Below are positions 11,901 to 28,533 of a stretch of 64,000 nucleotides of DNA, piece after piece. Every line of letters begins with the position of its first letter. The stretch's first letter is position 1. Origin of the DNA: Nitrosopumilus sp. (GTDB lineage Archaea; Thermoproteota; Nitrososphaeria; Nitrososphaerales; Nitrosopumilaceae). The translations under genes and the position numbers were made by a program. The notes below the pieces were generated by a model, which saw nothing but the letters and a program-made list of their open reading frames with translations, was not told the DNA's origin and ran no database searches. The stretch lies in NCBI GenBank assembly GCA_965223425.1, contig OZ245003.1, forward strand, positions 960,001 to 1,024,000, in the 5' to 3' direction.

Positions 11901-12214
11901 AATTTTTTGAAGAAAAAATTGGACAAATAGAAATTGTTCACAAAATTTCAGAGCCTGAGCGAAAACCAAACATATCTGATCTTCTTTATGAGCGAAAGAT
12001 TGACTTTATCATAAACATCCCTAGTACTTTGTCTTTAGAAAAATATGTTGGAATGCTGGATGATGAATATCAAATTCGCCGAAAGTCTTTGGAATTGGGA
12101 ATTCCTGTATTGACTACAATTGAATTGGCAGACTCTTTTGTGAAAACTTTGGAATGGTTAAAGGATAATCAAACCACCAAAGATCCAATCGAGTCTTATG
12201 ATAAAATAGAATAA
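8972..12214 (+). CDS. carB: Carbamoyl-phosphate synthase large subunit
   Basis: GSGAIKIGEAGEFDYSG, duplicated ATP-grasp halves, EINPRLSRSSALASKATG, C-terminal MGS domain. Confidence 0.97.
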   Translation: MPKNESLKKILVLGSGAIKIGEAGEFDYSGSQCLKAIREDGLKSVLINPNIATIQTDTRFADQVYLLPVNPEYVESIIEKERPDGIMLAYGGQTALNCGVKLEESDILKKYGVGVLGTQVKGIQSTEDRQLFKDSMKEAGVPVLKSKTVTNFDDAKKAAEALRYPVIIRVAYTLGGRGGGVAHNEIELHEIVERGLKASLVGQVLIEEYIGHWKQIEYEVMQDYDGNNVIVCNMENVLSMKVHTGDNIVVAPSQTIDNHEYHMLRSAALRATKHVGIVGECNIQYALDPDSDRYVAIEINPRLSRSSALASKATGYPLAYMSAKIGLGYNLSELVNRITKSTTACFEPSLDYIVCKHPRWDFAKFELVNRKLGPTMKSVGEVMAIGRTFEESLQKSIRMLDIGNDGLVLNRSNGKTYTEEEIESKLSHHDDLILYNVAVALKMGISVERIYKLSTIDPWFVEKIKNIIDIESKLKDSELDESLLWKAKKMGFSDKQIARSKDKTPDDVRDLRKKLGVLPSVKQIDTLAAEWPAVTNYLYLTYGGYSHDIEVSSDEKGIVVVGAGPYRIGSSVEFDWGTVNMVWGLQENGEKNISVVNCNPETVSTDYDICTRLYFEELTQERLLDITEFENPKGVITCVGGQTANNLTPGLAQHGINIMGTSADDVDRAEDRSKFSAELDKLHIQQPRWQAFSSLNEAKNFAQEVGFPVIVRPSYVLSGAAMKVVWSQDELKTYVKEATDVSPDHPVVISKFMLNSLEVDVDGISNGKEVVIGAIVEHIDSAGVHSGDAMMCIPPWRLNNKIIETINDYTKKIALTFNVKGPFNLQFLIHDNHVYVIELNIRASRSMPFVSKLVKTNLISLASKAILDKPLPKIPENKWQKIHNYGIKVPQFSFMQLDGADIALGVEMQSTGEAACFGNSFYDALSKGLTSVGYNLPDKGTALVTVGGATNKEKLVTTIAKLKHLGFKILATEHTAEFFEEKIGQIEIVHKISEPERKPNISDLLYERKIDFIINIPSTLSLEKYVGMLDDEYQIRRKSLELGIPVLTTIELADSFVKTLEWLKDNQTTKDPIESYDKIE

Positions 12215-12439
12215 TTTTAAAAAACATCAAACATAACTACACTAACAGTTAACGTGGCAGAAAAATTCTCAGATGATGAACCTGGCTAGGTATTAAGCAA
12301 CATGTATCAAAAAGTTCAAGACAACAAAAGCACAGATCAAAAAAAGAGCAAAACAAGTAATATATACAGGCCGTGAAGAAAATTATGAGATTAATCTAAA
12401 TTACGTAATGAAGAATTTTTTCTAAACTCAGAACTATAC

Positions 12440-13687
12440 CAGCTAAGCGAAATCTGCTCTAATTCGGGCCAAATCGGCTACAAAATGCAAACAGATCAAT
12501 GAGGGTACGACCCCATGATTTCTGTTGTTCACACAAAAAACCAGACAGGGCCGCGAACTGTTAAACAATCCACGCATATATGAAGACGTTGCAGACGGCG
12601 CCAAAAACATGCTTGCATGCGCCAACACATCAGACAGGTACAACGCAACGTTTGGACCAGATGATCTGAACTGCGGCATGCTAAAGGCTGCCACCATGAT
12701 TCTTCTGTAGCAGATGCGCAAAGGCGAAGGCACAAACGCTGCAGTACCCCGTCTGACAGGTGGATTGCATCGGCAATCAAGGGAATTGAGCAGGATGCAA
12801 TCCAGCACACGCTTGAAGGCCAGATAGCAAGGCATCTTGAAACCCTCAAAAGACTGGGCAGGTTTCCAAAAAAAGGACTGGACATGGCAATCGACTTGCA
12901 CCTCATACCGCGCTATGACAGGGTACCGGGGGCGGAGCTGACACGTTCCAAATACAAGAACGGAACCAAATACTTTGAGCGTTACATGAGTCCAGTGCGT
13001 AAATGACAAGATGCGTATCGTTCTTGCCGCATCATACCTGAAGATGCTTGAATCCGTGCCTGATTACGTGGATGCCGTCCTCAAAACCATGGCAGGGATG
13101 GGGGCATCAGGATACACCTGGCGTTGCTTGACCGTGAGTTCTTCTCAGTTGATGCGATAAGCAAGCTGCAGGAAAACAACGTAAAGTTTCTGATGCCGTG
13201 CAGGAACACGTACAACGTGGTGGCCGCCTGCGAGAGTTTGCACAGGGGAAAAGAGGAAAGATCTCAGGGAACGTAATTGAAAACAACCTGGGTTCTGCTG
13301 CTGAATATTCCATGATAATAACTGACAGAAAAAAGGCCAAAGACTCTGATGACCCAGAGGGAGGTATACATCGGGTTTGCAACAAACCATCCCGCAGTCA
13401 GGATCGAGGTCTATGCCAAAAGATGGGGGATAAAGATGAGTACGGCAAAATCGAGGAGTGCAGGGCCAAGACACGGATCACAGACATGGAATCGCGGATG
13501 CTGTGCTTTTACCATTCTCGGGTATTGTACAATGAATGGGTGATTGTCAGGGCACTGCTTTCTGATGGCACTGAAAGGCAGAGTGTCATGGCCATGCTGA
13601 CGTTTAAGGTGCAGCTGGAATCGCTTCCCATACGCCAATCCAAACCGCCTACATGATCTCAGGCTTGGGACACATTTCGCTTAGCTG
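12440..13687 (+). mobile_element. ISH3-family insertion sequence (decayed)
   Basis: Perfect 14-bp TIRs at 12440-12453 and 13674-13687 around a fragmented DDE transposase. Confidence 0.88.
12516..13656 (+). pseudogene. ISH3-family DDE transposase pseudogene, multiple frameshifts
   Basis: Motifs in shifting frames: MAIDLHLIPRYD, LTRSKYKNGTKYFERY, LLDREFFSVD, YIGFATN, YAKRWGI. Confidence 0.85.
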
Positions 13688-13694
13688 ACCTCTG

Positions 13695-13711
13695 AAAAAA
13701 ATATATAAATA
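13695..13711 (+). promoter_or_regulatory. Putative BRE/TATA promoter for the giant gene
   Basis: A-tract followed by TATATAAAT just inside the IS right end, about 210 nt upstream of the TTG start. Confidence 0.35.
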
Positions 13712-13920
13712 CCAAAACAAAAGCATCAAGTTGTTGAGTCACACCTTTCAGTTATCTGCTTTCAAGAAGCCGTCGCTAGCCGTATTGCGCTTATGTCATT
13801 CCTGCAGTAATCTTGCCTTCCCTGCCACAATGTTGCCTGACATCGGGGGGGGGGGTGGAGGAAGGATTAGCAGCAGCAGTAATGGTATTGGGAGAAGGAG
13901 AGTACAGGAGAGTCTGACAG

Positions 13921-16900
13921 TTGCGACGATTGATAAAACCGCCGTTGCTTGCAACGACAACAACGACAGCAGCAGCAATAGCGGCACTTGTTCTTCTGAT
14001 TCCCCTTTGCATTCCCCTTGCTGATGCTGCGATAGATTCGCCTGTTCCAGTCGCCTCCTTTGATGACGGAGACACCGTCACAGTCGGCATGACAAACAAG
14101 ACATTTGACGAGCTTGACCAAGCACATGACATCACCACGGTAAGGATAGGCACCGGCACGTACGCCCTGGTCGTATCATTAACTGACTCAGGTGTCCAGA
14201 TAATAGACATTACAGATCCCGCAAGCCCCGTCCCGACTGCCTCCTTTGAGGACGGGGACACAGTCGAAGTCGGCGGGACAAACAAGACATTTGACAAGCT
14301 TTTCAACGGACGGGACATCACCACGGTAAGGATAGGCTCCAGTACCTACGCCCTGGTCGCAGCAACCCTTGACCACGGCGTCCAGATAATAGACATTACA
14401 GATCCCGCAAACCCCGTCCCGACTGCCTCCTTTGAGGACGGGGACACAGTCGAAGTCGGCATGACAAACAAGACATTTGACGAGCTTAGGCAACCATATG
14501 GCATCACCACGGTAAGGATAGGCTCCAGTACCTACGCCCTGGTCGCAGCAAACCTTGATGACGGCGTCCAGATAATAGACATTACGGATCCCGCAAGCCC
14601 CGTCCCGACTGCCTCCTTTGAGGACGGGGACACAGTCGAAGTCGGCGGGACAAACAAGACATTTGACGAGCTTGATGGCGCACGGGGCATCACCACGGTA
14701 AGGATAGGCTCCAGTACCTACGCCCTGGTCGCAGCATACTTTGATGACGGCGTCCAGATAATAGACATTACGGATCCCGCAAGCCCCGTCCCGACTGCCT
14801 CCTTTGAGGACGGGGACACAGTCGAAGTCGGCGGGACAAACAAGACATTTGACGAGCTTGGGAAAGCATTTGGCATCACCACGGTAAGGATAGGCTCCAG
14901 CACCTACGCCCTGGTCGCAGCATACGTTGATGACGGCGTCCAGATAATAGACATTACGGATCCCGCAAGCCCCGTCCCGACTGCCTCCTTTGAGGACGGG
15001 GACACAGTCGAAGTCGGCGGGACAAACAAGACATTTGACGAGCTTGATGGCGCATTTGGCATCACCACGGTAAGGATAGGCTCCAGTACCTACGCCCTGG
15101 TCGCAGCATACTTTGATGACGGCGTCCAGATAATCAACATTACGGATCCCGCAAGCCCCGTCCCGACTGCCTCCTTTGAGGACGGGGACACAGTCGAAGT
15201 CGGCGGGACAAACAAGACATTTGACGAGCTTGATGGCGCACAGGGCATCACCGTAGTGGATATAGGTGCCAGCACCTACGCCCTGGTCGCATCATACGTT
15301 GATGACGGCGTCCAGATAATAGACATTACCAATCCCGCAATAGATCCCCCCAGGTTCGTCTCAGCCGAACTAGACGAATTAACTGGTGTGCTGAGCGTCA
15401 CCTTTGACAAGACAATCGACGCATCCAGCGTCGATGCCACAATGTTCCACATAAGAGAGCCCGAATCCATCACGGGAGGAGTGACCCTGTCTGCACCGGA
15501 GCTTGACACTGCCGCTATTGCTACTACTGACGGCACCGCGCTCTCATTTACGCTGACTGGCCCGAACCGCGACGCAGTCATCGCGCTAGATGACCCGCAG
15601 CTGGAGATAGGGGAGGGCGCCGTGGCCGACGCCAATGGCACCAAGATAACTGCAGCCTTTGATATACGGACTGCCAGGTTCGCCGAGTCTTTTGCTTTTG
15701 GGACGATAGATAATGGTGCCAGAGCCATCGCCTTCTCAAATGACGGCCTGAGGATGTTCCTGGCAGGCATCAATGGTGATTCTAACGCATACCAGTACGC
15801 CCTGCCTGCGGCATTTGACGTGTCAGGTGCCAGCCTTACCCGCTCTGTTACGCTTTCAGACGCTCCTTTCATAAACGGAATCGCCTTCTCAAATGACGGC
15901 CTAAGAATGTTTACGGTCAATAGGTTAACTGATACCGTATACCAGTACGACCTGCCTACAGCATTTGACGTGTCAGGCGCCAGCCTTGCTCAATCCCTCA
16001 ACATCCAATCTCAGCAGACAGGCCCAACTGACGTCGCCTTTTCAAACGACGGCCACAGTATGTTCGTGATAGGGGCTTTCGAATATAAGATAGACCGGTA
16101 CGACCTGCCTACAGCATTTAACGTGACAGGCGCCGAACACGTCGGCGTTTTCTCATTAGAACAAAGGATAGAGGGTAATGTGTATGGCCTTACCTTCTCA
16201 AACGACGGCCACAGGATGCTCGTTACATATGGACTGGGGGACTTCGCAACCAACGACTACAAATCCGTACACCAGTACGATCTGCCTGCAGCATTTAACA
16301 CGACAGGCGCCAGCCTTGTCGGCACCTTTGACCTCTCTCCACATGCGCCGAGATTGAGAGGCACCGCCTTCTCAAATGACGGCCTTGGGATGTTCAATAT
16401 AGACTCCTCTAACAGTACCGTACACCGGTACGACCTGAGGCTGCTCTACGACATAAACAGGCAGCCAGTCGCAGAGGCAGGCCCAAACCAGCACGTGCAG
16501 GAAAGAGACACGGTGACCCTTGACGGGACCAACTCGGCGGATCCTGATGACGGCGACACCACCCTGACGTACTCGTGGTCCCAGACATCCGGCTCCCCTG
16601 CCGTATCCCTGACAAACGCCAACACAACAAGCCCCACATTCACTGCACCGCAAACCGGCAGTACTGCCGCCCTAGAGTTCACGCTTACGGCAAGCGACTC
16701 CTCCTTGTCAAACGGCACTGACACGGTAACTGTCACAGTCTACGACGACCAGACAGTCTTTGCCAGGTCTGCCACGTACTATGAAAACCACGGCATCCTC
16801 GGCATAACCTTCAACAGGGACATCGATAGACTGCCAGGTATTTTATTTGACTTGTTTTCTATCCGCGAGTCCGGCTCTAATTCTGGCGGCTCGGATCTTG

Positions 16901-19900
16901 CCTCCTCTGAATGGCTGGAAAACACGGCAGCGCGCAGCACGATGATCTTCATGCTTGACCCGTCCACGGATGACGCAGTCAGGGCTTTGACATCCCCGCT
17001 GATTGACATAGAGGCTTTTGCCGTGTCTGGCACAAATGGCATCCCATTTATGTACGACCAAGTCGAACTGCCAGTCGTCAAAAGCGGCGCATTTCTTCCG
17101 CGGGTAACCACTGCTGTTGCCTCGGCCCAAAGCGAGATCACCGTGCGCTTTTTGTCCAACGTCGACACGGACATAACCAACGGCACGGGATGGTTCGTGG
17201 GCGCCTCCGTGGACGTGGGCCTGGAAGAAAACCTTGCCGTAGAGTCAAACTCGGATCCCGGCGGGATGACAGACACCATGACGCTTGCGCTAAACGGCTC
17301 GCTGCCAACAGGATTCAGGTCAGGTGCCATCTTCCTTGACTACCAGAGGCCGTCTGATGACGGCACCGGCATCTTCAACGGCACCGAATACCTGGGCAGC
17401 ACCAACCGCATCTTGCTAACTGACGGCATACCACCGGTAATAGTCAATGCCAGCGCAGCTTCTCCAACTGCCACGTCAATAACCCTGACCTTCTCAGAGA
17501 GGATCACAGGCAAGTCTGATGCCGAAAGCTTTTCGCTCTCGCGTACGGCAGACAGCGCCACCACGACGCCGGTGCCTGCAGTGGTGTCGCAGGTGGAAGC
17601 CGGCTCATCCCCCACCATCACGCTTAACCTTAACGGCACCATCGGCAACAACGACCTGGTTATCGGCTACAACCGGGATCTGGGAGGCGACAGCAGCATG
17701 GCAGACATTGCAGGCAACCCCGTGGCAAGCTTTGCAGACATACCGGTGGCCACGCCGCCTGCGGATCCCGTTCTGCCGCCACCACCGGAAGACGACAGCT
17801 ACGCGATAGATTCGCCTGTTCCAGTCGCCTCCATCACTGAAGGCCAGACCCATTCTAACGGCAAGACATTTGACGAGCTTGACGGCCCACGGGACATCAC
17901 CACCGTGGATATAGGTACCAGTACCTACGCCCTGGTCGTATCAGACCGCGAGCTCACTCCTTTCAACGGCGTCCAGATAATCAACATTACCAATCCCGAA
18001 AACCCTGCCCCCGTCGCCTCTATCACTGACGGCCAGACCCATTCTAACGGGAAGACGTTTGACGAGCTTAGCGGCCCACGGGGCATTACCACAGTAACTA
18101 TCGGCACCAGTACCTACGCCTTGGTCACAGCATACTTTGACCAAGGCGTCCAAATAATCAACATTACCAATCCCGCAAAACCCGTCCCGACAGCCTCCTT
18201 TGATGACGGGGACACCGTCCCAGTCGGCAATGCAACCCGGACATTTCACGAGCTTCGAGGTGCACAAGACATCACCACCGTAACTATCAGCACCAGCACG
18301 TACGCCCTGGTCACAGCAGGACTTGACGACGGCGTCCAAATAATCAACATTACCAATCCCGCAAAACCCGTCCCGACAGCCTCCTTTGATGACGGGGATC
18401 GCGTCACAGTAGACAATGCAAACAGGACATTTGACGAGCTTGACGGCGCACAAGCCATCACCACCGTAACTATCGGCACCAGCACGTACGCCCTGGTCGC
18501 AGCAGGATTTGACGACGGCGTTCAGATAATCGACATTACCAATCCCGCAAAACCCGTCCCGACAGCCTCCTTTGATGACGGGGATCGCGTCACAGTAGAC
18601 AATGCAAACAGGACATTTGACGAGCTTGACGGCGCACAAGCCATCACCACCGTAACTATCGGCACCAGCACGTACGCCCTGGTCGCAGCAGGATTTGACG
18701 ACGGCGTTCAGATAATCAACATTACCAATCCCGCAAGCCCCGTCCCGACAGCCTCCTTTGATGACGGGGATCGCGTCACAGTAGACAATGCAAACAGGAC
18801 ATTTGACGAGCTTGACGGCGCACAAGCCATCACCACCGTAACTATCGGCACCAGCACGTACGCCCTGGTCGCATCATTAGATGACGACGGCGTCCAGATA
18901 ATCGACATTACCAATCCCGCAAACCCCTTCCCGACAGCCTCCTTTGATGACGGGGACACCGTCAAAGTCGGCGGGACAAACAAGACATTTGACGAGCTTG
19001 ACGGCGCACGGGCCATCACCACCGTGGATATAGGTTCCAGCACGTACGCCCTGGTCGCATCACTCACTGACAACGGCGTCCAGATAGTCGGCATCTCGTC
19101 AAGATCTATTACAAACCAGCCCACTGTAGCCCCAACCCTCGTATCTGTTGAAAGGCACGACCCTGCCACACAGAGCACAAACGATACCACCCCGACCTTC
19201 AGGGCAACCTTCAGCAAGGCAGTAACCAACGTGGACACATCAGACTTTGAGACCGCAGGTGATGCCACAGCGACAGTCTCTGCTGTCACCCCGGTATCTG
19301 ATACGGTATACCACGTGGAGGTAAACGTGACTGCAGACGGCATAGTCAACCTTGGCATTGATGCAGGACACAACATCCAAGATGCCGCAGGCAACTCCCT
19401 GTCCGGTACTGAGCCTACCGATACAGACGAGCCATACACCATAGATACTGCTCCGCCAACCCTCCTGGCCGTTACAAGGATACACCCTGCAGCAGAAAAC
19501 ACAAACGATCGCAACCCGATCTTCAGGGTCATATTCGGCGAGGCAGTCACCAACGTGGACAAGGAAGACTTTGAGACCTTGGGCAATGCCACTTCAACAG
19601 TCTCTTCGGCCACCCGCATATTTGATACCCAATACGACGTGCTGGTAACGGTAACTGCAGACGGCACGGTCAACCTTGGCATTGATGCAGGACACAACAT
19701 CACAGATGTTGCAGGCAACGCCCTGTCAGACACGACACCTACCGGAGCAAACGAGCCATACACCATAGATACCGTTCAGCCAACCATCCTGTCCATTAAA
19801 AGGCATAACCCCCTCACAGAAAACACAACTGATTCCACCCCGACCTTCAGGGTAACCTTCAGCGAGGAGGTACTTGAGGTGGACAAGCCAGACTTTGCGA

Positions 19901-22900
19901 TCACAGACAGCAGCAGCGCCAACGCGACAGTCTCCACAGTCACCCCTGTACCCGGCAGTACGGTATACGACGTGGGGGTGACCGTAACTGCAAACGGCAC
20001 AGTCAGCCTTGTGCTTGCAGGATCACACTATATCATTGATACTGCAAGCAACTCCCTGTCTCCTGCGGATCCGCCCGTCAGCGAATCATACAACGTCTCC
20101 CTCCTCCCGCAGGCAGAAAACCGGCCTCCGACAATCGACCTAACCGGCGTTAACCCTGCAACTGCAGAAAGGTACGTCGCGTATACAGATGCCGGGGCAG
20201 CCTGCACCGATCCTGACGGCGATACCACAATGCTTGCCAGCTCCTCCAATGTGGACACGGACACAGTATCTTTGCCGGCATCTCCTTACCGGTACACCTA
20301 CTCGTGTACAGACCAACACGGGCTTGCCGCGACAAACAAGACCAGACTCGTCAGTGTGGAGGATACCGTGAAACCTGTGATTACCCTTATCGGCCCGGCA
20401 TCAGTACCGCTGACAGTGGGCGACACATACACGGAAGAAGGGGCAACCTGCACTGACTCTGGCCGTCTGCTTGGTGCTGCCAGTATCGGCGGCGCTACGG
20501 TGGACACGGCTGTCGTCAACGAGTACGATGTGGTGTATGCCTGCTCAGACGGGTACAACAACGCTATTCCGGTAACCAGGACCGTAACTGTTACAGAGCC
20601 CACGCCACCACCACCACCACCACCGGACGTCAACGTCCCCCCATCTGCGTCAATCAGCGCGCCTCCCCGGGCAGCAGAGGGAACGCAGGTAACCCTTGAC
20701 GGGAGCGGCTCTGCTGACACTGACGGCACCATACAATCATACAACTGGACTGCCAGCAACCCGGCAGTAGCCATCACCGGCAGCACCCAGCCAACTGCAT
20801 CATTTATTGCGCCCCAGGTCACAGAGGACACTTTTCTGGCCATCACGCTGAAGGTAACTGACGACGACGGCGCCACAAACTCTGCACAGCACAACATGAC
20901 CATAACCAACGTAAGCCCGCCACCTGACGACAGTGCCGCCCCGACGTTTACTGCCAGGACCGGCCCTGCCACAAACCAGATAACTGTCACCTTCTCCAAG
21001 AACGTCAACAGCACTGCTGACTCCCACGCAGCATGGGGCGTGGCAGGAAGCACGGTCACCGCAATCACCGGCCTTGACGGGACAGGCAATACTGCAACCC
21101 TGACGCTGCAAAGCCCGGTACAGCCGCCTGATGCAACGCCTGCCGTAACATACAATGCCGATGCGGGGAGCGTCTCAGATGCGGCAGGCAACGCGTTAGC
21201 TACTGCAACTGTCACCGCTACTGCGGGACATCCTGCAGGTCTTCACATCCACCTGATCGGCGATGCCTTCCTATACCACACATACGGGGAACCGTACACC
21301 GACAAGGGCGCCCTGTGCCATGACGCAGACGGAAACGACATAACTGACACCGGCGACTATGAAACCCTGCCGTACCTGAATCAGACGCAGACAATAAACG
21401 CCACCCTTCATGCAGATACCGTTCTTAATTTTACCCACCAATCCCAAAACGAGTACCGCCCCTTTGATCCGCAGGAGGTAACATACAAGTGTGCTACCTC
21501 GCCGTCTGAATTCGTAGAGGAGTCCAGGCAAGTAGCCCTGCGTGATGACACACCTCCTGAAATCCGACTAAACGGGCCACGCGACGTGGATCTGGAGATA
21601 GGCGAGACATTTGAGGAGACTGCCACATGCACTGACGCTCCTCTCAAATACCAGACAGAACTTCTAAACGCCGCATTTTATCTGACTTTTCGCATCTCTT
21701 TCCTCCCTGACGGGTACCAAGACACCGCAGGAGAGCACACGATAAGCTACACATGTTCGGACTCTAAAGGCAACGACGCAGAGGATACAAGCAGGACGCT
21801 TCATGTAGGCACGCCTGACAACACGCCACCCGTGCTTGCAGTCAACCCCGGCATAGTGACCACCCTGGCAAACGGCACGCATGTCGTACGGCAGGATGTC
21901 GGCTTTGCAGCAGCAGGTGACGGCGGCGGCCTGCAGTCCGCAGTATCATGCACCGATAACAGGGACAGCACCCCTGCAATCACGCTGGATCCTGCCACGG
22001 TGGACACCTCAGTTAGCGGCGCCCACACCATAACGTACTCCTGCACGGATGCTGCCGGCAACCCATCTAATGATATAACAGTAACCTGGGATTTCGGTCC
22101 TGCAGCCCCCGTGCTTGCAGTAACGCCCGCAGACACCCAAGTCACGCTGGCACTCGACGCGTCATACGAGATCCCCGCAGCATCCTGCACAGACCACAGG
22201 GACGGCGACATCACCGGCACCGGGATTGTAACTGTCATCTCGTCTGGAGGCCAGCCAGTCGACGAAATAGACACCTCCTCTGCAGGCACATACGGTATAA
22301 CGTACTCCTGCACGGACTCTGATGACAACACCTCAGAGCACAACGTGACAGTCACAATCCTGCCTGCCGTAGTTGACAGCACGCCGCTTATCGTAGTGCT
22401 AAACCCGCCTGAAATCATATTTGTTCCAGTCGGGGGCAGCTTTGCAGATGCTGATACCGGCGCCCTCTGCATTGATGGCCAGGGCAATATCATAGAAGGC
22501 AGAACCACCGTGGATGCCACCGCACTTGACACGGCCGTTCTTGGCAACCACACCGTGACGTACTCCTGCACGGTTTCTGAAGAAAACCCCCAGTCTAGCA
22601 CCATATCAAGGACAGTCAGCGTGTACGGATTCACCGTAAACGGAAACATCGCCGACTTTGCAACTGACATCACCACCTCTGATGACTACGAGGAAGGCAT
22701 AATCCAAAACATTACGAATATTGAGAATCCATACCAAAGCATAAAGTATTACGATACAGCCGGGCAAGACACCGACTCTTTTGACAATCAAACACGCCCG
22801 GCAGGAACCTATACCGTACAGTATACCGTGTCTACCCCAATGTCGTCCCCGCCCATAACCTACACCATCACAGAGACAGTAACCGTGGTAAACGCCACCA

Positions 22901-25695
22901 CGCAGCCAGACGGCAACACGCCCCCAATTGTGGCAATCAGCGTAGTACCTGAAGTAGAGGCAGCAGAGGGAACGCTGGTATCCCTTGACGGGACTAACTC
23001 GAGGGATGATGACGGCACCATATCATCATACGCGTGGACCACCGACGATGCGTCCATCGCAATAACTGATGCTGACCGGCCAACTGCATCATTTACGGCG
23101 CCTCAGGTCACAGAAGACACTCCTCTGCTCATCACGCTGCGTGTAACTGACAACGAAGGCGCTCCAGGCTCTGCACAGTATACCCTGATCATAACTGACA
23201 GCGAGTCTCCTGTAGTACCTGACACCACGCCTCCAACATTTACGGTAGACGGCCACACAGGCGACTTTGAGACGTCCCTAACAGAAGGCCAGACCTACAG
23301 GAACGGCAAGATAGATAACATCAACGAGACTGGCAGCCATCCGACCAGCACGGAGATAAGGTACTACAGCGGCACCGGCGATGTCATCACCACCACTGAC
23401 GAAAACAAGATCAGCTCCATTAACAATACCATGCCTGCCATCGGAGGCTACACCATACAGTACCGCGTCTCTGACTCGGCCGTTTCACCAAACACCCACA
23501 CAATCACAGAGACACTCACCGTGCGCGCACCTGCCACGGTAACCATAGGGGCAATCGTCTCGACTACCGGCTCCATCTCGTCACTTGGCATACCTGCAAA
23601 TGACGCCATACACCTGGCAGTAAATGACTTTAACGACAGATACCTTGCGCCAAAGGAGACCTCATGGAGGCTTGCAGTGTCTGGGTATGATGACGGGTCT
23701 ACTTCTGAGGGCGCAATTGCAGCACTGGAACTGCTTGCAGGCAGCAACATAACCTCCATTGTGGGGCCCCTCACAAGCGATGCGCTGTCTGCAGTAAAGG
23801 GCCACGCCCTGTTTGATGAGCCGCCAAGGCTTGCCATAAGCTACGCATCCACTGCGCCTGCGGAGGATCTCAAGCAGAAAGACGACCGCGTCTTTAGGAC
23901 AGTCCCTGATGATTCCAACATCGTCAGGGTATACGTCAGCCTCTTTGAGGCAGACTCTGTGGATTACGTGATTCCGGTGTTCCGCAACGACGCGTGGGGG
24001 ATAGCACTGAACCGGACCCTTGCAGATGAAATTGATGATCATAACAACAACAACAACAACAACAACGAAATAACCGTACACGGCGGAATACTGTACGACC
24101 CTGACACCGTGTCACTTTCTGCCAACACAACGCTTGCCTTGCTGAATGACACGCTAAGTCGGGATTCCGTCAGTGAAAAGGCCCCCGCAGTGGTGGTGTT
24201 CGGATTTAGCGAGACCCTTGACATACTCGACGAGGCTGCAGCCACTGCAAACCTGCCTGCAGCAAAGTGGTACGGTAGCGACGCCGTGGCGCCATCAAAG
24301 CTGCTTGAGGGTGATACCCCACAGGACGAGAATCGCAGGGCATTCCTTGAGCGCACCGACTATAACGTGCTCACCCTTGCAATAGACGAAAACGAGGCAA
24401 ACAAGAGGATAGACAGCTCTGTGGACAACGCTGACGTATACTCTTATGCGGCATACGACGCAGTATACATACTCGGCACTGCCATACACCTCAACGGCGG
24501 CCCTGCAGGCAATATGGTCAACGAGGGCCTGATTGGCAACATCGCGCAGGTAGCAGACAACACAAACGGGCACTACACAGACCCTGCCATGGGCAACACC
24601 GAGCTCAACGAGTACGGCGACCTGAAGCAGGCTGATTACTTTGTCCTCTCCCTTGATCCTGGCAACGACAGAACCCCCGCATCCTTTGAGCCAGAATTCC
24701 GGTATGATCACTCATCAGGCACCCTTGGGAGCCTTGTCTCCTCTGGCGGCGGTGGCAGCAGCGGAGACGTCTCTGCCCCCTCAATCCGCACGGGCTTTGA
24801 TGCAAACCAGTACCCCCTGGTATACGACGGAGTAAAGTACGGCCCTGACACGATTGACTCTCCCCACACTGCCACGGTACGCGCAGGCAGCGGCGAGAGG
24901 CTTTTCAGCACCCTCACAGTATACGAGGACGGCGGGGCGCAAAACGTGCGGCACGTCGACATGTTTGTCGCACACGACGGCAGGACAATACACAACGACG
25001 GCACGGAAACCCACGTGACATACGATTCAGGCAACGTCCGGATAACTGATCCGCACGGCCTGATTGCCAGCGCCACTGTGGATGCGTCTGCCATTGATGC
25101 CACAAAGGCGCAGTTTGAGTTTGCCATAACCTTTGCCAAGAAGGTTCCGCTCTCTGACGTGCTGTACCGCCTGTGGGACACCAGCAGAAACGCGCTTTAC
25201 ATCCACCTTGAGGACGCCCTTGTGGTGTCTGAGGGAAGGAAAGGCGGCAGCAGCAGTGGCGGCGGAGGCGGTGGTGGCAGCGGAGGCGGTAGCAGCAGCA
25301 GCAGCGGAGGCGGCAGCAGCAGCAGCAGCAGCAGCAGCAGTACCGCCACCCCAGCCACCGGCAGCGGCAACGGCACAACAACAACAACCACCACCACCGC
25401 TGGCAACGGCACCGCAGCTGACACTGCAGACAAGCAGCAGCAACAACAACCCCGACAGGGCTTTACCGCAGAACAGCTTGACACCCTAAAGCAGTGGGGC
25501 GGATTTGCGTCCCAGTCCGCATCTGACTCGCAGCTTTTAGCCCAGTTCGGAATAGAGGGCACCAGCATCCCCGCATACTTTAAGCAGACAGCAAAGTGGT
25601 TCCTCGATGCAGATGACGGCGATGGCGGCCTGACTGCGCAGGAGTTTGTCGCAGCGCTGTCGTACCTCGGGCAGCGCGGGCTGCTGCTAAACTAG
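13921..25695 (+). CDS. Giant (3924 aa) secreted multidomain surface protein: two LVIVD-like propellers, SNDG-repeat propeller, PKD/Ig-like and DUF5011-like domains, periplasmic-binding (LivJ-like) domain, thaumarchaeal C-terminal domain
   Basis: Uninterrupted 11.8-kb ORF; signal peptide ending ADA-A; AGGAG upstream of TTG; repeated GVQIIDITDP, AFSNDG, VTLDGxxSxD and YSCTD motifs; C-terminal IPAYFKQTAKWF...EFVAALSYL. Confidence 0.93.
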   Translation: MRRLIKPPLLATTTTTAAAIAALVLLIPLCIPLADAAIDSPVPVASFDDGDTVTVGMTNKTFDELDQAHDITTVRIGTGTYALVVSLTDSGVQIIDITDPASPVPTASFEDGDTVEVGGTNKTFDKLFNGRDITTVRIGSSTYALVAATLDHGVQIIDITDPANPVPTASFEDGDTVEVGMTNKTFDELRQPYGITTVRIGSSTYALVAANLDDGVQIIDITDPASPVPTASFEDGDTVEVGGTNKTFDELDGARGITTVRIGSSTYALVAAYFDDGVQIIDITDPASPVPTASFEDGDTVEVGGTNKTFDELGKAFGITTVRIGSSTYALVAAYVDDGVQIIDITDPASPVPTASFEDGDTVEVGGTNKTFDELDGAFGITTVRIGSSTYALVAAYFDDGVQIINITDPASPVPTASFEDGDTVEVGGTNKTFDELDGAQGITVVDIGASTYALVASYVDDGVQIIDITNPAIDPPRFVSAELDELTGVLSVTFDKTIDASSVDATMFHIREPESITGGVTLSAPELDTAAIATTDGTALSFTLTGPNRDAVIALDDPQLEIGEGAVADANGTKITAAFDIRTARFAESFAFGTIDNGARAIAFSNDGLRMFLAGINGDSNAYQYALPAAFDVSGASLTRSVTLSDAPFINGIAFSNDGLRMFTVNRLTDTVYQYDLPTAFDVSGASLAQSLNIQSQQTGPTDVAFSNDGHSMFVIGAFEYKIDRYDLPTAFNVTGAEHVGVFSLEQRIEGNVYGLTFSNDGHRMLVTYGLGDFATNDYKSVHQYDLPAAFNTTGASLVGTFDLSPHAPRLRGTAFSNDGLGMFNIDSSNSTVHRYDLRLLYDINRQPVAEAGPNQHVQERDTVTLDGTNSADPDDGDTTLTYSWSQTSGSPAVSLTNANTTSPTFTAPQTGSTAALEFTLTASDSSLSNGTDTVTVTVYDDQTVFARSATYYENHGILGITFNRDIDRLPGILFDLFSIRESGSNSGGSDLASSEWLENTAARSTMIFMLDPSTDDAVRALTSPLIDIEAFAVSGTNGIPFMYDQVELPVVKSGAFLPRVTTAVASAQSEITVRFLSNVDTDITNGTGWFVGASVDVGLEENLAVESNSDPGGMTDTMTLALNGSLPTGFRSGAIFLDYQRPSDDGTGIFNGTEYLGSTNRILLTDGIPPVIVNASAASPTATSITLTFSERITGKSDAESFSLSRTADSATTTPVPAVVSQVEAGSSPTITLNLNGTIGNNDLVIGYNRDLGGDSSMADIAGNPVASFADIPVATPPADPVLPPPPEDDSYAIDSPVPVASITEGQTHSNGKTFDELDGPRDITTVDIGTSTYALVVSDRELTPFNGVQIINITNPENPAPVASITDGQTHSNGKTFDELSGPRGITTVTIGTSTYALVTAYFDQGVQIINITNPAKPVPTASFDDGDTVPVGNATRTFHELRGAQDITTVTISTSTYALVTAGLDDGVQIINITNPAKPVPTASFDDGDRVTVDNANRTFDELDGAQAITTVTIGTSTYALVAAGFDDGVQIIDITNPAKPVPTASFDDGDRVTVDNANRTFDELDGAQAITTVTIGTSTYALVAAGFDDGVQIINITNPASPVPTASFDDGDRVTVDNANRTFDELDGAQAITTVTIGTSTYALVASLDDDGVQIIDITNPANPFPTASFDDGDTVKVGGTNKTFDELDGARAITTVDIGSSTYALVASLTDNGVQIVGISSRSITNQPTVAPTLVSVERHDPATQSTNDTTPTFRATFSKAVTNVDTSDFETAGDATATVSAVTPVSDTVYHVEVNVTADGIVNLGIDAGHNIQDAAGNSLSGTEPTDTDEPYTIDTAPPTLLAVTRIHPAAENTNDRNPIFRVIFGEAVTNVDKEDFETLGNATSTVSSATRIFDTQYDVLVTVTADGTVNLGIDAGHNITDVAGNALSDTTPTGANEPYTIDTVQPTILSIKRHNPLTENTTDSTPTFRVTFSEEVLEVDKPDFAITDSSSANATVSTVTPVPGSTVYDVGVTVTANGTVSLVLAGSHYIIDTASNSLSPADPPVSESYNVSLLPQAENRPPTIDLTGVNPATAERYVAYTDAGAACTDPDGDTTMLASSSNVDTDTVSLPASPYRYTYSCTDQHGLAATNKTRLVSVEDTVKPVITLIGPASVPLTVGDTYTEEGATCTDSGRLLGAASIGGATVDTAVVNEYDVVYACSDGYNNAIPVTRTVTVTEPTPPPPPPPDVNVPPSASISAPPRAAEGTQVTLDGSGSADTDGTIQSYNWTASNPAVAITGSTQPTASFIAPQVTEDTFLAITLKVTDDDGATNSAQHNMTITNVSPPPDDSAAPTFTARTGPATNQITVTFSKNVNSTADSHAAWGVAGSTVTAITGLDGTGNTATLTLQSPVQPPDATPAVTYNADAGSVSDAAGNALATATVTATAGHPAGLHIHLIGDAFLYHTYGEPYTDKGALCHDADGNDITDTGDYETLPYLNQTQTINATLHADTVLNFTHQSQNEYRPFDPQEVTYKCATSPSEFVEESRQVALRDDTPPEIRLNGPRDVDLEIGETFEETATCTDAPLKYQTELLNAAFYLTFRISFLPDGYQDTAGEHTISYTCSDSKGNDAEDTSRTLHVGTPDNTPPVLAVNPGIVTTLANGTHVVRQDVGFAAAGDGGGLQSAVSCTDNRDSTPAITLDPATVDTSVSGAHTITYSCTDAAGNPSNDITVTWDFGPAAPVLAVTPADTQVTLALDASYEIPAASCTDHRDGDITGTGIVTVISSGGQPVDEIDTSSAGTYGITYSCTDSDDNTSEHNVTVTILPAVVDSTPLIVVLNPPEIIFVPVGGSFADADTGALCIDGQGNIIEGRTTVDATALDTAVLGNHTVTYSCTVSEENPQSSTISRTVSVYGFTVNGNIADFATDITTSDDYEEGIIQNITNIENPYQSIKYYDTAGQDTDSFDNQTRPAGTYTVQYTVSTPMSSPPITYTITETVTVVNATTQPDGNTPPIVAISVVPEVEAAEGTLVSLDGTNSRDDDGTISSYAWTTDDASIAITDADRPTASFTAPQVTEDTPLLITLRVTDNEGAPGSAQYTLIITDSESPVVPDTTPPTFTVDGHTGDFETSLTEGQTYRNGKIDNINETGSHPTSTEIRYYSGTGDVITTTDENKISSINNTMPAIGGYTIQYRVSDSAVSPNTHTITETLTVRAPATVTIGAIVSTTGSISSLGIPANDAIHLAVNDFNDRYLAPKETSWRLAVSGYDDGSTSEGAIAALELLAGSNITSIVGPLTSDALSAVKGHALFDEPPRLAISYASTAPAEDLKQKDDRVFRTVPDDSNIVRVYVSLFEADSVDYVIPVFRNDAWGIALNRTLADEIDDHNNNNNNNNEITVHGGILYDPDTVSLSANTTLALLNDTLSRDSVSEKAPAVVVFGFSETLDILDEAAATANLPAAKWYGSDAVAPSKLLEGDTPQDENRRAFLERTDYNVLTLAIDENEANKRIDSSVDNADVYSYAAYDAVYILGTAIHLNGGPAGNMVNEGLIGNIAQVADNTNGHYTDPAMGNTELNEYGDLKQADYFVLSLDPGNDRTPASFEPEFRYDHSSGTLGSLVSSGGGGSSGDVSAPSIRTGFDANQYPLVYDGVKYGPDTIDSPHTATVRAGSGERLFSTLTVYEDGGAQNVRHVDMFVAHDGRTIHNDGTETHVTYDSGNVRITDPHGLIASATVDASAIDATKAQFEFAITFAKKVPLSDVLYRLWDTSRNALYIHLEDALVVSEGRKGGSSSGGGGGGGSGGGSSSSSGGGSSSSSSSSSTATPATGSGNGTTTTTTTTAGNGTAADTADKQQQQQPRQGFTAEQLDTLKQWGGFASQSASDSQLLAQFGIEGTSIPAYFKQTAKWFLDADDGDGGLTAQEFVAALSYLGQRGLLLN
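14029..15340 (+). repeat. 7 x 186-bp (62-aa) coding tandem repeat, propeller array 1
   Basis: GACATTTGAC recurs at 14100, 14286, 14472... (186-nt spacing). Confidence 0.95.
15661..16450 (+). repeat. Five diverged AFSNDG-type propeller repeats
   Basis: IAFSNDGLRMF x2, VAFSNDGHSMF, LTFSNDGHRML, TAFSNDGLGMF, each followed by Q/R-Y-x-L. Confidence 0.85.
17803..19095 (+). repeat. 7-unit coding tandem repeat, propeller array 2
   Basis: Same unit family as array 1; opens with the same 30 nt (GCGATAGATTCGCCTGTTCCAGTCGCCTCC); units 4-6 nearly identical at 186-nt spacing. Confidence 0.95.
25243..25449 (+). repeat. Trinucleotide low-complexity linker (Gly/Ser, Thr, Gln runs)
   Basis: (GGC)n, (AGC)n, (ACA/ACC)n, (CAG/CAA)n. 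Confidence 0.85.
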
Positions 25696-26061
25696 GGACG
25701 CCAAAAGGCACCACCTGCCAGTCAAAGACAGATGCCCGCCGCAGATCGCCGGGAACGCGGCCAGGATCCGCTTGTCTGGCACCGCGCACACAAGGTTTTA
25801 TCAAACCCCTGTGCAGTCCCCAGTTGAGCCTGCAACCGGATTGCGGCACATCATCATCATCATCCCATATGCGTTGTTTTCCCTGGCCGTTCCAAACAGC
25901 AATATTCTTTTCAAGATATTTGGCTGCAGTATTCTAGATGCTTTGCAGGCTGCCAAGAGGGGAGACTCTCCACTGCAGAATCACACACGCCCAGAGTCTG
26001 CAGGATCGAATCACTGGTTACAGTTCAGAGGAGAACCTGGTACTTTTGTGAAGGCTTTCTC

Positions 26062-26159
26062 CAGCTAAGTGAAATGAAATGTGCCCTAACTAAGGAACCA
26101 CTCTCATGTGCAGAACCAACCGCTGATCTGATCTCAGATTTGAGGCATTTCGCTTAGCT
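26062..26159. mobile_element. ~100-bp MITE with the ends of the 12440-13687 ISH3 element
   Basis: Left end CAGCTAAGTGAAAT (1 mismatch to TIR), right end ATTTCGCTTAGCT; subterminal AACCGC...TGATCTCAG shared with the IS 3' end. Confidence 0.85.
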
Positions 26160-27228
26160 AGACCTGATCTGTAATTACTAACAAAACCTGACGTTTCACC
26201 AAACTGATTCCTTGTTACGTCATGGTATCACAACGAAATCGCGCGTCTTCAGCTTGTAGTTGATCAGGCCGCAGATTATGGCATTGATGCAGTCATACCT
26301 GCACAGTCTGTTCCTAAACTTGTCCCTCATTATGCCGAATTTCTTGATCCTTGAGATGACATGCTCCACCAGTACCCTTGCTCTGGACAGCTCCCGGTTG
26401 AATTCCTTCTGCGCATCATCAAGCTTGCCGCCCCTTGGCTTCTTGTACGGGATCAACACGTCAAGCTCCGGATAGTCCTTCCGTATCCCCTGATATCCAA
26501 GATCCACAAGGATTTTCAGATCTCCTGAAAGTTTTGGGCACTTTGACTTGAAGACAGAATAGTCATGCCTGCTTCCAGGCGAGTGCGGCGTCCTGTGCAT
26601 AATCATGCCGTCTGCGTTTACAACGTACTGTGTCTTGACCGTATGCATCTTCTTTTTGCCCGAATAGTGTGTCTTTCTCATGGACTTGTTCTTGGGCCTT
26701 TGAATCTGCTGCTCTGATGCGTCAATGATTGCGTGCAGCCCAGGAAAGGCGCATGCCAGCTCCCGAATGTCTGATATCTGTCTGGTCTCTGCAAGCTTTT
26801 TGTCAGGCAGTGACAGTGCAGATTTTATGGCAGGCTCCATGTATCGTATGCCGGTGCTGACATTTGACTGGCTCAGGTCAAAAAGCAGGCTCAGGAGACC
26901 CTGTGTGACGTATGTCCTGTAGTGGATCAGTGCCATCAGGATTCTGTCCCTGCGGCAGTGTTTGAACCTGCGCCCTGCGCCGATGTCTCGGATTCTGTTA
27001 TTCCTGGAGAGGCGTCTTTCCTCCGTTATCTTGTACTGTGACTCTATCTCCGGGCACAGATCATAAAACTGCCCGGGGGTAACTCCCGTCATGGACAGGA
27101 ATAATTTTGGTTTTTTTGCCAGCTTTTTGTGGTTTAACATGACATGCATGGCATTTTGCCTGTTTTGGATCTAGTTGCGAACAAATATCTGGAAAATGGT
27201 AAAATTATGTTAATAACGGATAGGGTCT
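26160..27228 (-). mobile_element. IS5-family (ISL2/DDE_Tnp_4-type) insertion sequence
   Basis: Imperfect 18-bp TIRs (14/18; 26160-26177, 27211-27228); 3-bp TSD GCT at 26157-26159 and 27229-27231. Confidence 0.85.
26220..27149 (-). CDS. ISL2/HARBI-like DDE transposase, apparently intact
   Basis: IIDASEQQIQRP, YSGKKKMHTVKTQ, PGSRHD, DLGYQG, RVLVEHVISRIKKF. Confidence 0.92.
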   Translation of the reverse strand: MHVMLNHKKLAKKPKLFLSMTGVTPGQFYDLCPEIESQYKITEERRLSRNNRIRDIGAGRRFKHCRRDRILMALIHYRTYVTQGLLSLLFDLSQSNVSTGIRYMEPAIKSALSLPDKKLAETRQISDIRELACAFPGLHAIIDASEQQIQRPKNKSMRKTHYSGKKKMHTVKTQYVVNADGMIMHRTPHSPGSRHDYSVFKSKCPKLSGDLKILVDLGYQGIRKDYPELDVLIPYKKPRGGKLDDAQKEFNRELSRARVLVEHVISRIKKFGIMRDKFRNRLCRYDCINAIICGLINYKLKTRDFVVIP

Positions 27229-27446
27229 GCTGTATACACAGATATTTTCATAATATGCTGGTCTTGCCAATTGACTTGTAGTTGATTCTGCAATACTAGC
27301 AAATCCGTTACGGATGACAGCATTGGTGCTCCTAGTAAAGACGCTATATCATCCCAAATGCTTCAACTGCAGATAATTCCAATTCTTGGTATTCTACGAC
27401 ATTGTAGCTAGAATCAATCCCATGCATCTTCTTCCTAATTATCTGA

Positions 27447-28199
27447 TTAAATTACTTGATCAATTATTGATTCGTTTCCAATAATGGAACCATCAAGTGT
27501 AACTATTCTTGCAGTGGATATTGATTTTATCTTGTCAATTATCGGAGATATTGATTTTTTATATTGCCTCCTATGTGTTGCATAAAAATACTTGTTAAAT
27601 GAAGGAATAATTGTAATTTCTAATTCTCCTGACTTGTTTGGAAAAATGTTTTCTTTTTCTGTTTTTAGTGATATCCAAACTCTTTGTCCATTTACCACCG
27701 AGTCTTCTTGAAAAAATACTGGATGAACATGGCCCATGATAATTTTATCAACATGAGAAAAATTCTCTGAAGGCATTGTGTGTCCGTGTGTCAACAAAAC
27801 ATTTTCTTCAACCATTCCAGTTGAACTAATCATGGAAATATTCTCCGGAACCAACCTCTGAATATTTGCATCATGATTTCCAGGAACCAAAATTACGTCA
27901 CATTTTTCTCGAACCTTTTCAAAAAACATTGGAACCTCATCCCATTCATTTTTTGAAATGCTTTTTATGCTTGATTTTACATCACCTAGTAGAATTACTG
28001 AGTCCGGATTTTCTGCATCGATAATTTCTAAAAGATCTTGAATTGTTTCCTTAATTGTAGAGTTTTTACCTATGAAAATCCCATTTGAGCTCATACTACT
28101 TTCAAATCCTATGTGAATATCTGTAACAGCAAGATACTTTTTTCTACCTTCTAGAACTAGTGCTGGCTTTGAGGAAACTAATCTTGTTTGTAGCATCAA
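27447..28199 (-). CDS. Metallophosphoesterase
   Basis: DIHIG, LLGD, GNHD, HGH, GHVHP. Confidence 0.9.
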   Translation of the reverse strand: MMLQTRLVSSKPALVLEGRKKYLAVTDIHIGFESSMSSNGIFIGKNSTIKETIQDLLEIIDAENPDSVILLGDVKSSIKSISKNEWDEVPMFFEKVREKCDVILVPGNHDANIQRLVPENISMISSTGMVEENVLLTHGHTMPSENFSHVDKIIMGHVHPVFFQEDSVVNGQRVWISLKTEKENIFPNKSGELEITIIPSFNKYFYATHRRQYKKSISPIIDKIKSISTARIVTLDGSIIGNESIIDQVI

Positions 28200-28230
28200 A
28201 GTTATACCTCAGGTATGTGATTAAATCCTT

Positions 28231-28533
28231 GTGAATGTAGATTCTGAGAAAATAGAGTCTGTTGTATCTCAAAAACGTGTAAAACTACATATTTTTGAGC
28301 CCAGCCAAAGAAAAATCTGGACAGTTGTGGGTAAAGGAAAGGAATACTGGGTCGATCCCGAATCCGGTTATTGTTCTTGCCCTGCATTCTATTTTGGAAA
28401 ACTAAATGGAAAAGATTCTTGTTACCATCTGGAGTCTGCTCAATTAGCCAACAAAGAAAACAGTTTTGAAAAAATTAATTTTGCTGATGCTGAGTTTTCG
28501 GATTTTATTTCAGGATTACTTTTAGATCTTTGA
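28231..28533 (+). CDS. SWIM zinc-finger protein
   Basis: CSCPAF...CYH. Confidence 0.8.
   Translation: MNVDSEKIESVVSQKRVKLHIFEPSQRKIWTVVGKGKEYWVDPESGYCSCPAFYFGKLNGKDSCYHLESAQLANKENSFEKINFADAEFSDFISGLLLDL

Follow-up and report, generated by a model that had tools for sequence, protein, structure and literature searches.

Composite transposons such as Tn5 and Tn10 carry a passenger between two insertion sequence (IS) arms, use the outermost inverted ends of those arms together, and are surrounded as a whole by a duplication of IS-typical length; in Tn5, one of the arms, IS50L, is defective. Mobile insertion cassettes (MICs) of the Bacillus cereus group, ~1-3 kb long, hold a passenger within IS-type inverted repeats, lack a transposase of their own and are likewise flanked by a duplication. 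Here, we describe a comparable arrangement around a giant gene in Nitrosopumilus sp. (GCA_965223425.1, genome G000 in the comparisons), whose genome comprises 2.64 Mb in two contigs. The window, meaning the whole 64,000-nucleotide stretch analysed, covers positions 960,001-1,024,000 of contig OZ245003.1 (C1:960001-1024000), and coordinates without the prefix C1 refer to it. With a probability of about 0.8, window positions 12440-27232 represent a composite DNA transposon bounded by terminal inverted repeats (TIRs), which was moved whole by an IS_A-type transposase acting on its outermost ends. Its passenger would be a promoter-bearing gene for a 3924-aa surface protein, and its arms IS_A on the left and, on the right, the 99-bp MITE1, a miniature inverted-repeat transposable element (MITE). 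We refer to the inner part of an arm as MITE2, to a secondary element in the right arm as IS_B, to the window unit as unit A, and to related units elsewhere on C1 as units B, C and D.

Composite and MITE-bounded transposition is textbook knowledge in bacteria, while documented natural cases in archaea are scarce. A survey of thaumarchaeal elements counts 244 IS in 20 genomes, with ISH3 in one species, and states that composite DNA transposons with passenger genes are undetected in archaea (Krupovic et al. 2019, PMC6563490). Where a 2024 review treats archaeal MITEs, it places them in Sulfolobus, Halobacterium, Haloquadratum and Desulfurococcus, not in Thaumarchaeota (PMC10969869). The closest thaumarchaeal precedent is the amoAB region on soil fosmid 19c08, described as a potential composite transposon because it lies between two near-identical IS (Bartossek et al. 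2012, PMC3379541). Like the units described here, it places thaumarchaeal genes between IS-derived arms; the proposal as worded there, however, rests on the identical flanking IS and mentions no duplication or empty site, both of which are found here. In Acinetobacter, MITEs flank class 1 integrons, and MITE-297 copies flank 76 kb on pA297-3 in a structure called 'comparable to' a composite transposon (PMC6382973). The shared feature is a pair of non-autonomous MITEs around cargo, mobilised in trans; the Acinetobacter structures in that account occur in bacteria, mostly on plasmids, with resistance cargo, whereas the present units are chromosomal, archaeal, carry a surface-protein gene, and exist in three copies with duplications and with empty sites in relatives. 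Unit A resembles Tn5, as drawn in a figure legend of the 2024 review (PMC10969869), and Tn10 in its IS-derived arms, outer ends, passenger, outer duplication of the IS's own length and defective arm. It differs in having a 99-bp MITE as one arm, an archaeal host, a single 11.8-kb gene as passenger, several copies in one genome and an ISH3-like IS. A literature search, whose coverage left out many subscription papers, yielded no account of a transposon with a giant gene as passenger, nor of units bounded by MITEs in Thaumarchaeota. The evidence supports a well-documented archaeal case of an already known element type, composite or MITE-bounded, with an unusual passenger and as part of a cassette family that jumped repeatedly.

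The unit was first proposed by a sequence-only reading, whose coordinates, TATAC flanks, IS, MITE, 1069-bp IS and GCT-G-TATAC junction all proved exact when the sequence was re-read. From left to right, the unit and its duplication comprise the following features:
12435-12439, no strand: left copy of the target-site duplication, TATAC (read from the sequence).
12440-13687, plus strand: IS_A, the left arm; a 1248-bp ISH3-like IS whose transposase gene is frameshifted, with TIRs at 12440-12456 and 13671-13687.
13688-13920, plus strand: upstream region conserved across the giant-gene family; a TATA-like box, AAATATATAAATA, lies at ~13699-13711.
13921-25695, plus strand: giant open reading frame (ORF) of 3924 aa (ORF call, Pfam).
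25927-26056 (approximate), minus strand: diverged MITE2 copy, the inner part of the right arm, with TIR CAGTCTTCCCAGAAGTAC, placed by its alignment over the entire length with the MITE2 in the left arm of unit B.
26062-26159, plus strand: MITE1, the IS_A-derived right arm, with both ends common with IS_A; 98 bp, or 99 bp including the G at 27232.
26160-27228, minus strand: IS_B, 1069 bp, an IS5-family-like secondary insertion in the end of MITE1, with a 309-aa transposase at 26220-27149.
27232, plus strand: displaced last base (G) of the right TIR of MITE1; intact MITE1 and IS_A ends read ...CTTAGCTG.
27233-27237, no strand: right copy of the target-site duplication, TATAC (read from the sequence).

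IS_A begins with CAGCTAAGCGAAAT at 12440-12453 and closes with ...ATTTCGCTTAGCTG at 13687, and its 17-nt arms are 94% complementary. MITE1 starts with CAGCTAAGTGAAAT... at 26062 and reads ...ATTTCGCTTAGCT up to 26159. One 14-mer forms both the left end of IS_A (12440) and, as a perfect inverted copy, the right end of MITE1 (26159 plus the G at 27232); it occurs four times in the window at up to two mismatches, against 0.49 expected, a number reached in 0 of 100 shuffles. The outer flanks of this pair match, TATAC on both sides, whereas the inner flanks differ, with ACCTC to the right of IS_A (13688-13692) and TTCTC to the left of MITE1 (26057-26061). The cargo between the arms measures ~12.4 kb, and the unit without IS_B 13.7 kb.

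The right end is visible only once IS_B is taken out. GCT is duplicated around IS_B, at 26157-26159 and 27229-27231, and a perfect 3-bp repeat flanks five of six genome copies examined, including the one in the window, with two of three bases matching in the sixth. Since IS_B makes 3-bp duplications, the proposed removal of IS_B and one GCT correctly restores the MITE1 end ...ATTTCGCTTAGCTG, an inverted TIR directly beside TATAC. The IS_B transposase matches PF13359 (DDE_Tnp_4) at 107.1 bits against a cut-off of 24.8, and the NCBIfam IS5 model NF033581 at 95.7 bits, under its cut-off of 140. Four other full-length copies of IS_B are 99.3-99.7% identical. The reverse order of nesting is found at C1:1356101-1357289, where a MITE1 lies within an older IS_B (96.8% identical) with flanks GTTAT/ATTAT, opposite to the arrangement in the window (26159/26160). 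This reciprocal nesting indicates that the MITE1 and IS_B families were active in overlapping periods.

Across the genome, ends matching the 14-mer at up to two mismatches number 85 and form 44 left/right pairs within 30 kb. Outward flanks match over 5-6 bp in 12 of these pairs, where 2000 permutations gave 0.6 on average and 4 at most; for pairs more than 2 kb apart, 4 of 21 match against a permutation mean of 0.24 and a maximum of 2. The outer 5-mer match is no coincidence, and the earlier assignment of the duplication to the outer pair holds. The duplication measures 5 bp in 10 of the 12 matched pairs and 6 bp in the other two. Three of the four long matching pairs carry a giant paralogue. 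The fourth, C1:755104-760633 (CTCTT), was considered as a cargo unit and rejected, as its interior contains IS_A fragments and matches to the ISH3 model, pointing to an IS_A swollen by nested insertions.

The composition of the block is foreign to its surroundings. GC content is 0.49-0.60 inside and 0.34-0.41 outside, with the shift coinciding with the block ends, and the giant gene and the IS_B transposase gene reach 0.62 and 0.64, respectively, in GC content at third codon positions (GC3), whereas four host genes have 0.23-0.30. Short-read contigs from four public runs (X1, X3, X5 and X6, from six listed) were available over 11000-28500. The left junction is bridged by contigs from two studies, X1 extending 44 bp inside the IS and X6 extending 63 bp outside and 724 bp inside. 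None of the contigs of the four runs joins across the insert at TATAC, although uncovered parts are no evidence, and exact-pattern scans of metagenome contigs with stretches of the window flanks gave 0 matches. A joint in X1 from 12027 to 28188 was disregarded as an empty site, having 26 letters on its shorter side and lying away from the duplication.

These data bear on the view that no unit moved at all, with IS_A and MITE1 landing separately beside a resident giant gene and the TATAC match being coincidental, or with the assembly at fault. Separate landings do occur near such genes, as shown by a solo MITE1, flanked by a CATGC duplication of its own, at a distance of 144 bp upstream of paralogue E, and misassembly is conceivable since giant genes and IS are multi-copy and short-read contigs break at each repeat. 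The chance of a single 5-mer match is nevertheless ~0.001 as estimated from base composition, the permutation test rejects chance for the whole set of pairs, the bridged left junction and the GC shifts at the block ends agree with a real insert, the flanks are contiguous in four congeners, and the giant gene is absent from the relatives' carB-phosphoesterase spacers examined. Taken together, this leaves such an account scarcely credible.

Insertion of the composite unit predicts that its flanks should be joined in relatives, and these flanks comprise three host features:
8972-12214, plus strand: carB (carbamoyl-phosphate synthase large chain), the left host neighbour; Pfam CPSase_L_D2, 338 bits, and further carB domains.
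12297-12425, plus strand: remnant of a DUF6036 nucleotidyltransferase-like gene, the last 42 codons and stop, identified by ORF comparison with a congener (G052).
27447-28199, minus strand: metallophosphoesterase gene, the right host neighbour; PF00149, 35.1 bits.

The carB-phosphoesterase region was compared with 11 loci from congeneric genomes, to which the carB DNA is 80-84% identical. The sequence-only reading had asked whether relatives carry the giant gene here without the IS ends. In 8 of the 11 loci, the giant gene is absent and carB and the convergent phosphoesterase gene are direct neighbours, 20-500 bp apart; of the other three, one keeps a fragment and two are without the phosphoesterase. 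The insertion point itself lies 10 bp beyond the stop of the DUF6036 remnant, 38 of whose 42 residues are identical to the C-terminus of a 169-aa ORF in G052. That ORF matches PF19502 (DUF6036) at 49.6 bits, and the gene is intact in G052 and decayed in the window. Uninterrupted, the window site would read ...CTCAGAAC-TATAC-ACAGATAT....

A search for the right flank across another 150 genomes of the genus gave matches in six, of which the best four loci were compared with the window and the two weakest, L055 and L056 (22-24 nt), were set aside. In these four congeners (G052, G101, G116 and G159), the flanks are contiguous at 73-88% identity: the homologue of 12297-12439 adjoins that of the right flank, which starts at 27239-27247 and ends at 27310-27356, and both TATAC copies align to one pentamer, TTATG, TTACA or TTACG. 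The suggested check for an empty site thus gave the expected outcome, with the flanks meeting at a single homologous pentamer in four congeners, though this pentamer is not TATAC and the site cannot be aligned in the carB-phosphoesterase spacers. A homologue of the DUF6036-remnant region is also found in other genomic contexts in six genomes (G014, G021, G052, G101, G116 and G159).

The proposal further suggested looking for the same ends around other cargo, and the genome scan found two such units:
C1:535292-547957: unit B, MITE1...MITE1, 12.7 kb, with TTTAA flanks and an intact 3911-aa ORF.
C1:728928-739403: unit C, 10.5 kb, MITE1-bounded, with TTGGTT flanks and a 3218-aa ORF.

Unit B shares 91.6% identity with the window cargo over 12,423 bp and is organised as TTTAA, MITE1, 5 bp, MITE2, promoter region, ORF, inverted diverged MITE2, 5 bp, MITE1 and TTTAA. 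In 10 of 11 relatives' loci, its neighbour genes lie ~50 bp apart around ...TTTTGG-TTTAA-AATTAAATATTGATA with a single TTTAA, which is an exact empty site. In 9 of 11 relatives' loci, the neighbours of unit C lie side by side and their spacers read ...(C/T)TTGG-AAAAAC, while the source genome has TTGGTT, the unit, and TTGGTT-GGAAAAAC; at its left end, unit C retains ~20 bp of MITE1. Unit D, which is truncated, has the same left-arm junction as unit B (MITE1, 5 bp, MITE2) in different outside flanks, from which it follows that the arms were inherited with the unit and that the boundary is the outer end of MITE1. Units B and C fit the description of MICs, at 10-13 kb in an archaeon as opposed to ~1-3 kb in bacteria. 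Three insertions with duplications are thus backed by relatives, through contiguous flanks (window), an exact empty site (unit B) and adjacent neighbours (unit C). Judging from these three inserted copies with duplications, the unit is probably mobile, and a 12-kb single-gene passenger would have moved intact at least three times.

Left of unit C, at C1:728838-728921, an extra ~84 bp with inverted ends CCGTAGTGTCTTTG...CAAAGACACTACGG is missing from the relatives' spacers and may represent a third, tiny MITE family. At C1:792900-794483, two MITE1 copies surround a 298-aa remnant of an IS6-like transposase (DDE_Tnp_IS240, weak); the outer flanks match (TCTAA) and the inner ones differ, making this a second kind of MITE1-bounded unit.

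The comparison with units B, C and D also bears on how unit A acquired an IS as its left arm. Under one scheme, a MITE1-gene-MITE1 unit entered TATAC, IS_A then inserted upstream of the promoter, and a deletion between the direct 14-bp left ends removed the old arm, so that the giant gene was still mobilised in TIR-bounded form and the IS was never the arm of a moving element. Unit B, which is the nearest full-length relative, carries a MITE arm at either end, IS_A meets the family upstream region 3 bp (units C and D) or 4 bp (unit B) from the MITE2 end point, and the first 14 bases of MITE1 and IS_A are the same and in the same orientation, all of which this scheme would explain. Yet it requires three events rather than two, no trace of a MITE1+MITE2 arm remains, and ACCTC to the right of IS_A is unlike the corresponding bases of B, C and D, so the insertion of IS_A is not tied to the window locus rather than to a donor. 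We consider arm replacement unlikely, although it is the foremost of the competing histories.

MITE1 and IS_A share ~35 bp at their right ends, and this stretch could in principle have served homologous recombination, in which a circle with the cargo and a MITE1/IS_A end, cut out of a donor unit by recombination of its two arms, integrated into a solo IS_A already resident at TATAC. The final structure would be identical and matching flanks would be expected, being the earlier duplication of the solo IS, and the ends would still have mediated the move. A homology this short, a coincidence required three times (units A, B and C), the left arm of unit C with only ~20 bp of MITE1 and hence little to recombine, and the lack of a solo element at any of the three sites in the relatives examined make this route very improbable.

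The elements at the ends of the composite unit are well represented in the genome. MITE1 has ~14 related copies sharing both ends with IS_A, including five solo copies of 89-120 bp with perfect 5-bp duplications. The right arm is a MITE: small, non-coding and multi-copy, with the ends of its parent IS and a duplication of the length made by that IS. MITE2 is a separate family of ~140 bp, and five pairs of its TIRs, spaced ~140 bp apart with no giant-gene unit nearby, are interpreted as free-standing copies.

IS_A itself has five full-length copies in the genome (93.8-100% identical) and many fragments, which are collinear with the ISH3 transposase model NF033541 (NCBIfam). A copy in a congener, G018, is flanked by a CCGTA duplication, has perfect ends of 18 bp and encodes an intact 380-aa transposase. 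The best model for this transposase is ISH3 (NF033541; 116.6 bits, E 1.2e-33, model positions 11-298 of 298) at a score that does not reach the curated cut-off of 225; it scores 20.4 against PF01609, under the cut-off of 23, and contains the motif YAKRWGIE, that is, Y-(2)-R-(3)-E. The ISH3 family is described as 1225-1500 bp long with CRGT ends and direct repeats of 4-5 bp, typically 5 (De Palmenaer et al. 2008, PMC2266710). Set against that description, IS_A is alike in its length of 1248 bp, its 5-bp duplications, its best transposase model and the Y-(2)-R-(3)-E motif, but differs in its CAGC ends, its model score under the cut-off and two 6-bp duplications (PMC2266710). MITE2 begins with CAGT, which fits the CRGT ends given there for the family (PMC2266710). 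The earlier appeal to ISH3-family duplications of 4-5 bp stands as to size, 5 bp being usual, but the label is weakened to 'ISH3-like', since length and repeats fit while the CAGC ends and the score beneath the curated cut-off do not. At the G018 locus (L022, G018:C1:1363694-1367948, with features at locus positions 98-1297 and 1508-2755), the intact IS_A lies ~210 bp 3' of the stop of a large surface-protein gene. This neighbour is distantly related to the giant gene (C-terminal part 26% identical), a parallel neighbourhood in a second species.

In the proposed mechanism, an IS_A-type DDE transposase would have bound the two outermost inverted ends, and the whole 13.7 kb would have moved and inserted at a 5-bp staggered cut, TATAC, between carB and the phosphoesterase gene. 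Later, IS_B presumably landed in the last bases of MITE1, duplicating GCT. With IS_B in the right end, that end is hidden and the unit can probably no longer move. In this way, a transposon end can escape routine annotation through a later IS insertion. As the IS_A gene here is now broken, the enzyme would have been supplied by a copy that was intact at the time, or in trans. The anatomy, duplications, empty sites and foreign composition are observed; we infer the identity and source of the transposase, the use of the IS_A end rather than an earlier MITE arm, and a single-event history. Accounts of the move as one insertion of the ~13.7-kb unit with IS and MITE arms are borne out by the contiguous flanks in four congeners, while the role of the IS_A end and the single event keep this conditional status.

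Several observations weigh against whole-unit transposition through the IS_A end. An open transposase frame is present in none of the five full-length IS_A copies, the longest forward-strand stretch being 172 aa, so the genome now encodes no cognate enzyme. The left arm of unit A is unlike the MITE1+MITE2 arm of B, C and D, so that use of the IS_A end in the move is putative. In the 11 carB-phosphoesterase spacers, only ~100 bp past the carB stop aligns and the right flank scores beneath shuffle controls, so these spacers do not reveal exactly what the site looked like in this lineage before the insertion. The contiguous flanks in the four congeners sit elsewhere, with carB and the phosphoesterase gene absent within 1.5 kb, and their pentamer differs from TATAC by 2-4 bases in an alignment read by eye. 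Read support is thin: on its IS_B side, the right-junction contig extends for only 29 bp, no listed contig bridges MITE1 and IS_B, and the data are all short-read contigs. Finally, a TIR-bounded structure is seen in none of six of the nine intact paralogues, and the two largest, at C1:1218353-1237744 and C1:1927725-1951710 (frames of 6309 and 7841 aa), have long upstream and downstream flanks in common, including (GACA)n, which points to a ~20-kb segmental duplication and not to transposition. Not every giant paralogue arose through transposition.

The passenger is a predicted adhesin-like surface protein, as suggested by an N-terminus that is hydrophobic and signal-like (judged by eye on the translation) together with Ig-like and PKD domains and LVIVD-type repeats. 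Its Pfam matches are Bact_surface_Ig-like (131.5 bits, five stretches), K319L-like_PKD (118.9 bits), ANF_receptor (64.8 bits), LVIVD (37.7 bits) and choice_anch_I (35.4 bits); Bact_surface_Ig-like, K319L-like_PKD, PKD_4 and LVIVD all exceed their cut-offs, and the ANF_receptor match is a periplasmic-binding-protein-like domain. The C-terminal 329 aa are conserved and match no family, and the translation shows no obvious C-terminal membrane anchor. LVIVD-type tandem repeats of 186 bp (62 aa) form two arrays, 13937-15352 and 17815-19120, with 85-100% likeness within the first array and 77-82% between arrays, and differences in length among the paralogues probably concentrate in these arrays.

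The upstream region (13688-13920) has nine further genome copies that are 81-95% identical over nearly the full length, and two more that retain only the last 57-70 bases; homology of all paralogues begins within ~12 bp of 13691. The region is a putative promoter. Rfam gave no match in 12150-14000 or in three relatives' loci. An apparent end beside paralogue F (C1:1030824) was rejected as a TIR, consisting of seven chance bases and sequence common to paralogue G.

The C-terminal part has nine matches in the genome, 91-100% identical and all in open frames of 2872-7841 aa, whereas among 100 other genomes of the genus it is matched in 28, at best with 43-47% identity. High identity within the genome against low identity to congeners indicates a recent, lineage-specific expansion amounting to ~112 kb of coding DNA. 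With units B and C inserted elsewhere by the same ends, transposition is one route to the nine intact giant paralogues, a concrete route for the expansion of genes usually considered hard to duplicate or transfer. The suggestion that transposition spreads giant surface proteins among Thaumarchaeota holds within this genome; its wider part does not follow, with the best congener homologue at 43-47% identity and no long TIR-bounded unit seen in the four congeners scanned for ends. A bolder claim, offered tentatively and with the odds somewhat against it, is that these are the first sequence-proven archaeal family of passenger-carrying DNA transposons, with duplications, empty sites and several insertions, and that foreign, high-GC3, MITE-bounded cassettes drove a lineage-specific burst of nine genes of 2,900-7,800 aa, ~4% of the genome.

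The wider genome is unusually rich in IS: the ISH3 model matches it at least 100 times, and ~30 of these matches fall within open frames of 400-437 aa. Within the window, a further ISH3-like transposase match at 38737-39672 (C1:998737-999672) covers model positions 1-296 at 121.9 bits and contains one in-frame TGA. The second contig, C2 (123 kb), has a GC content of 46.9% compared with 41.2% for C1.

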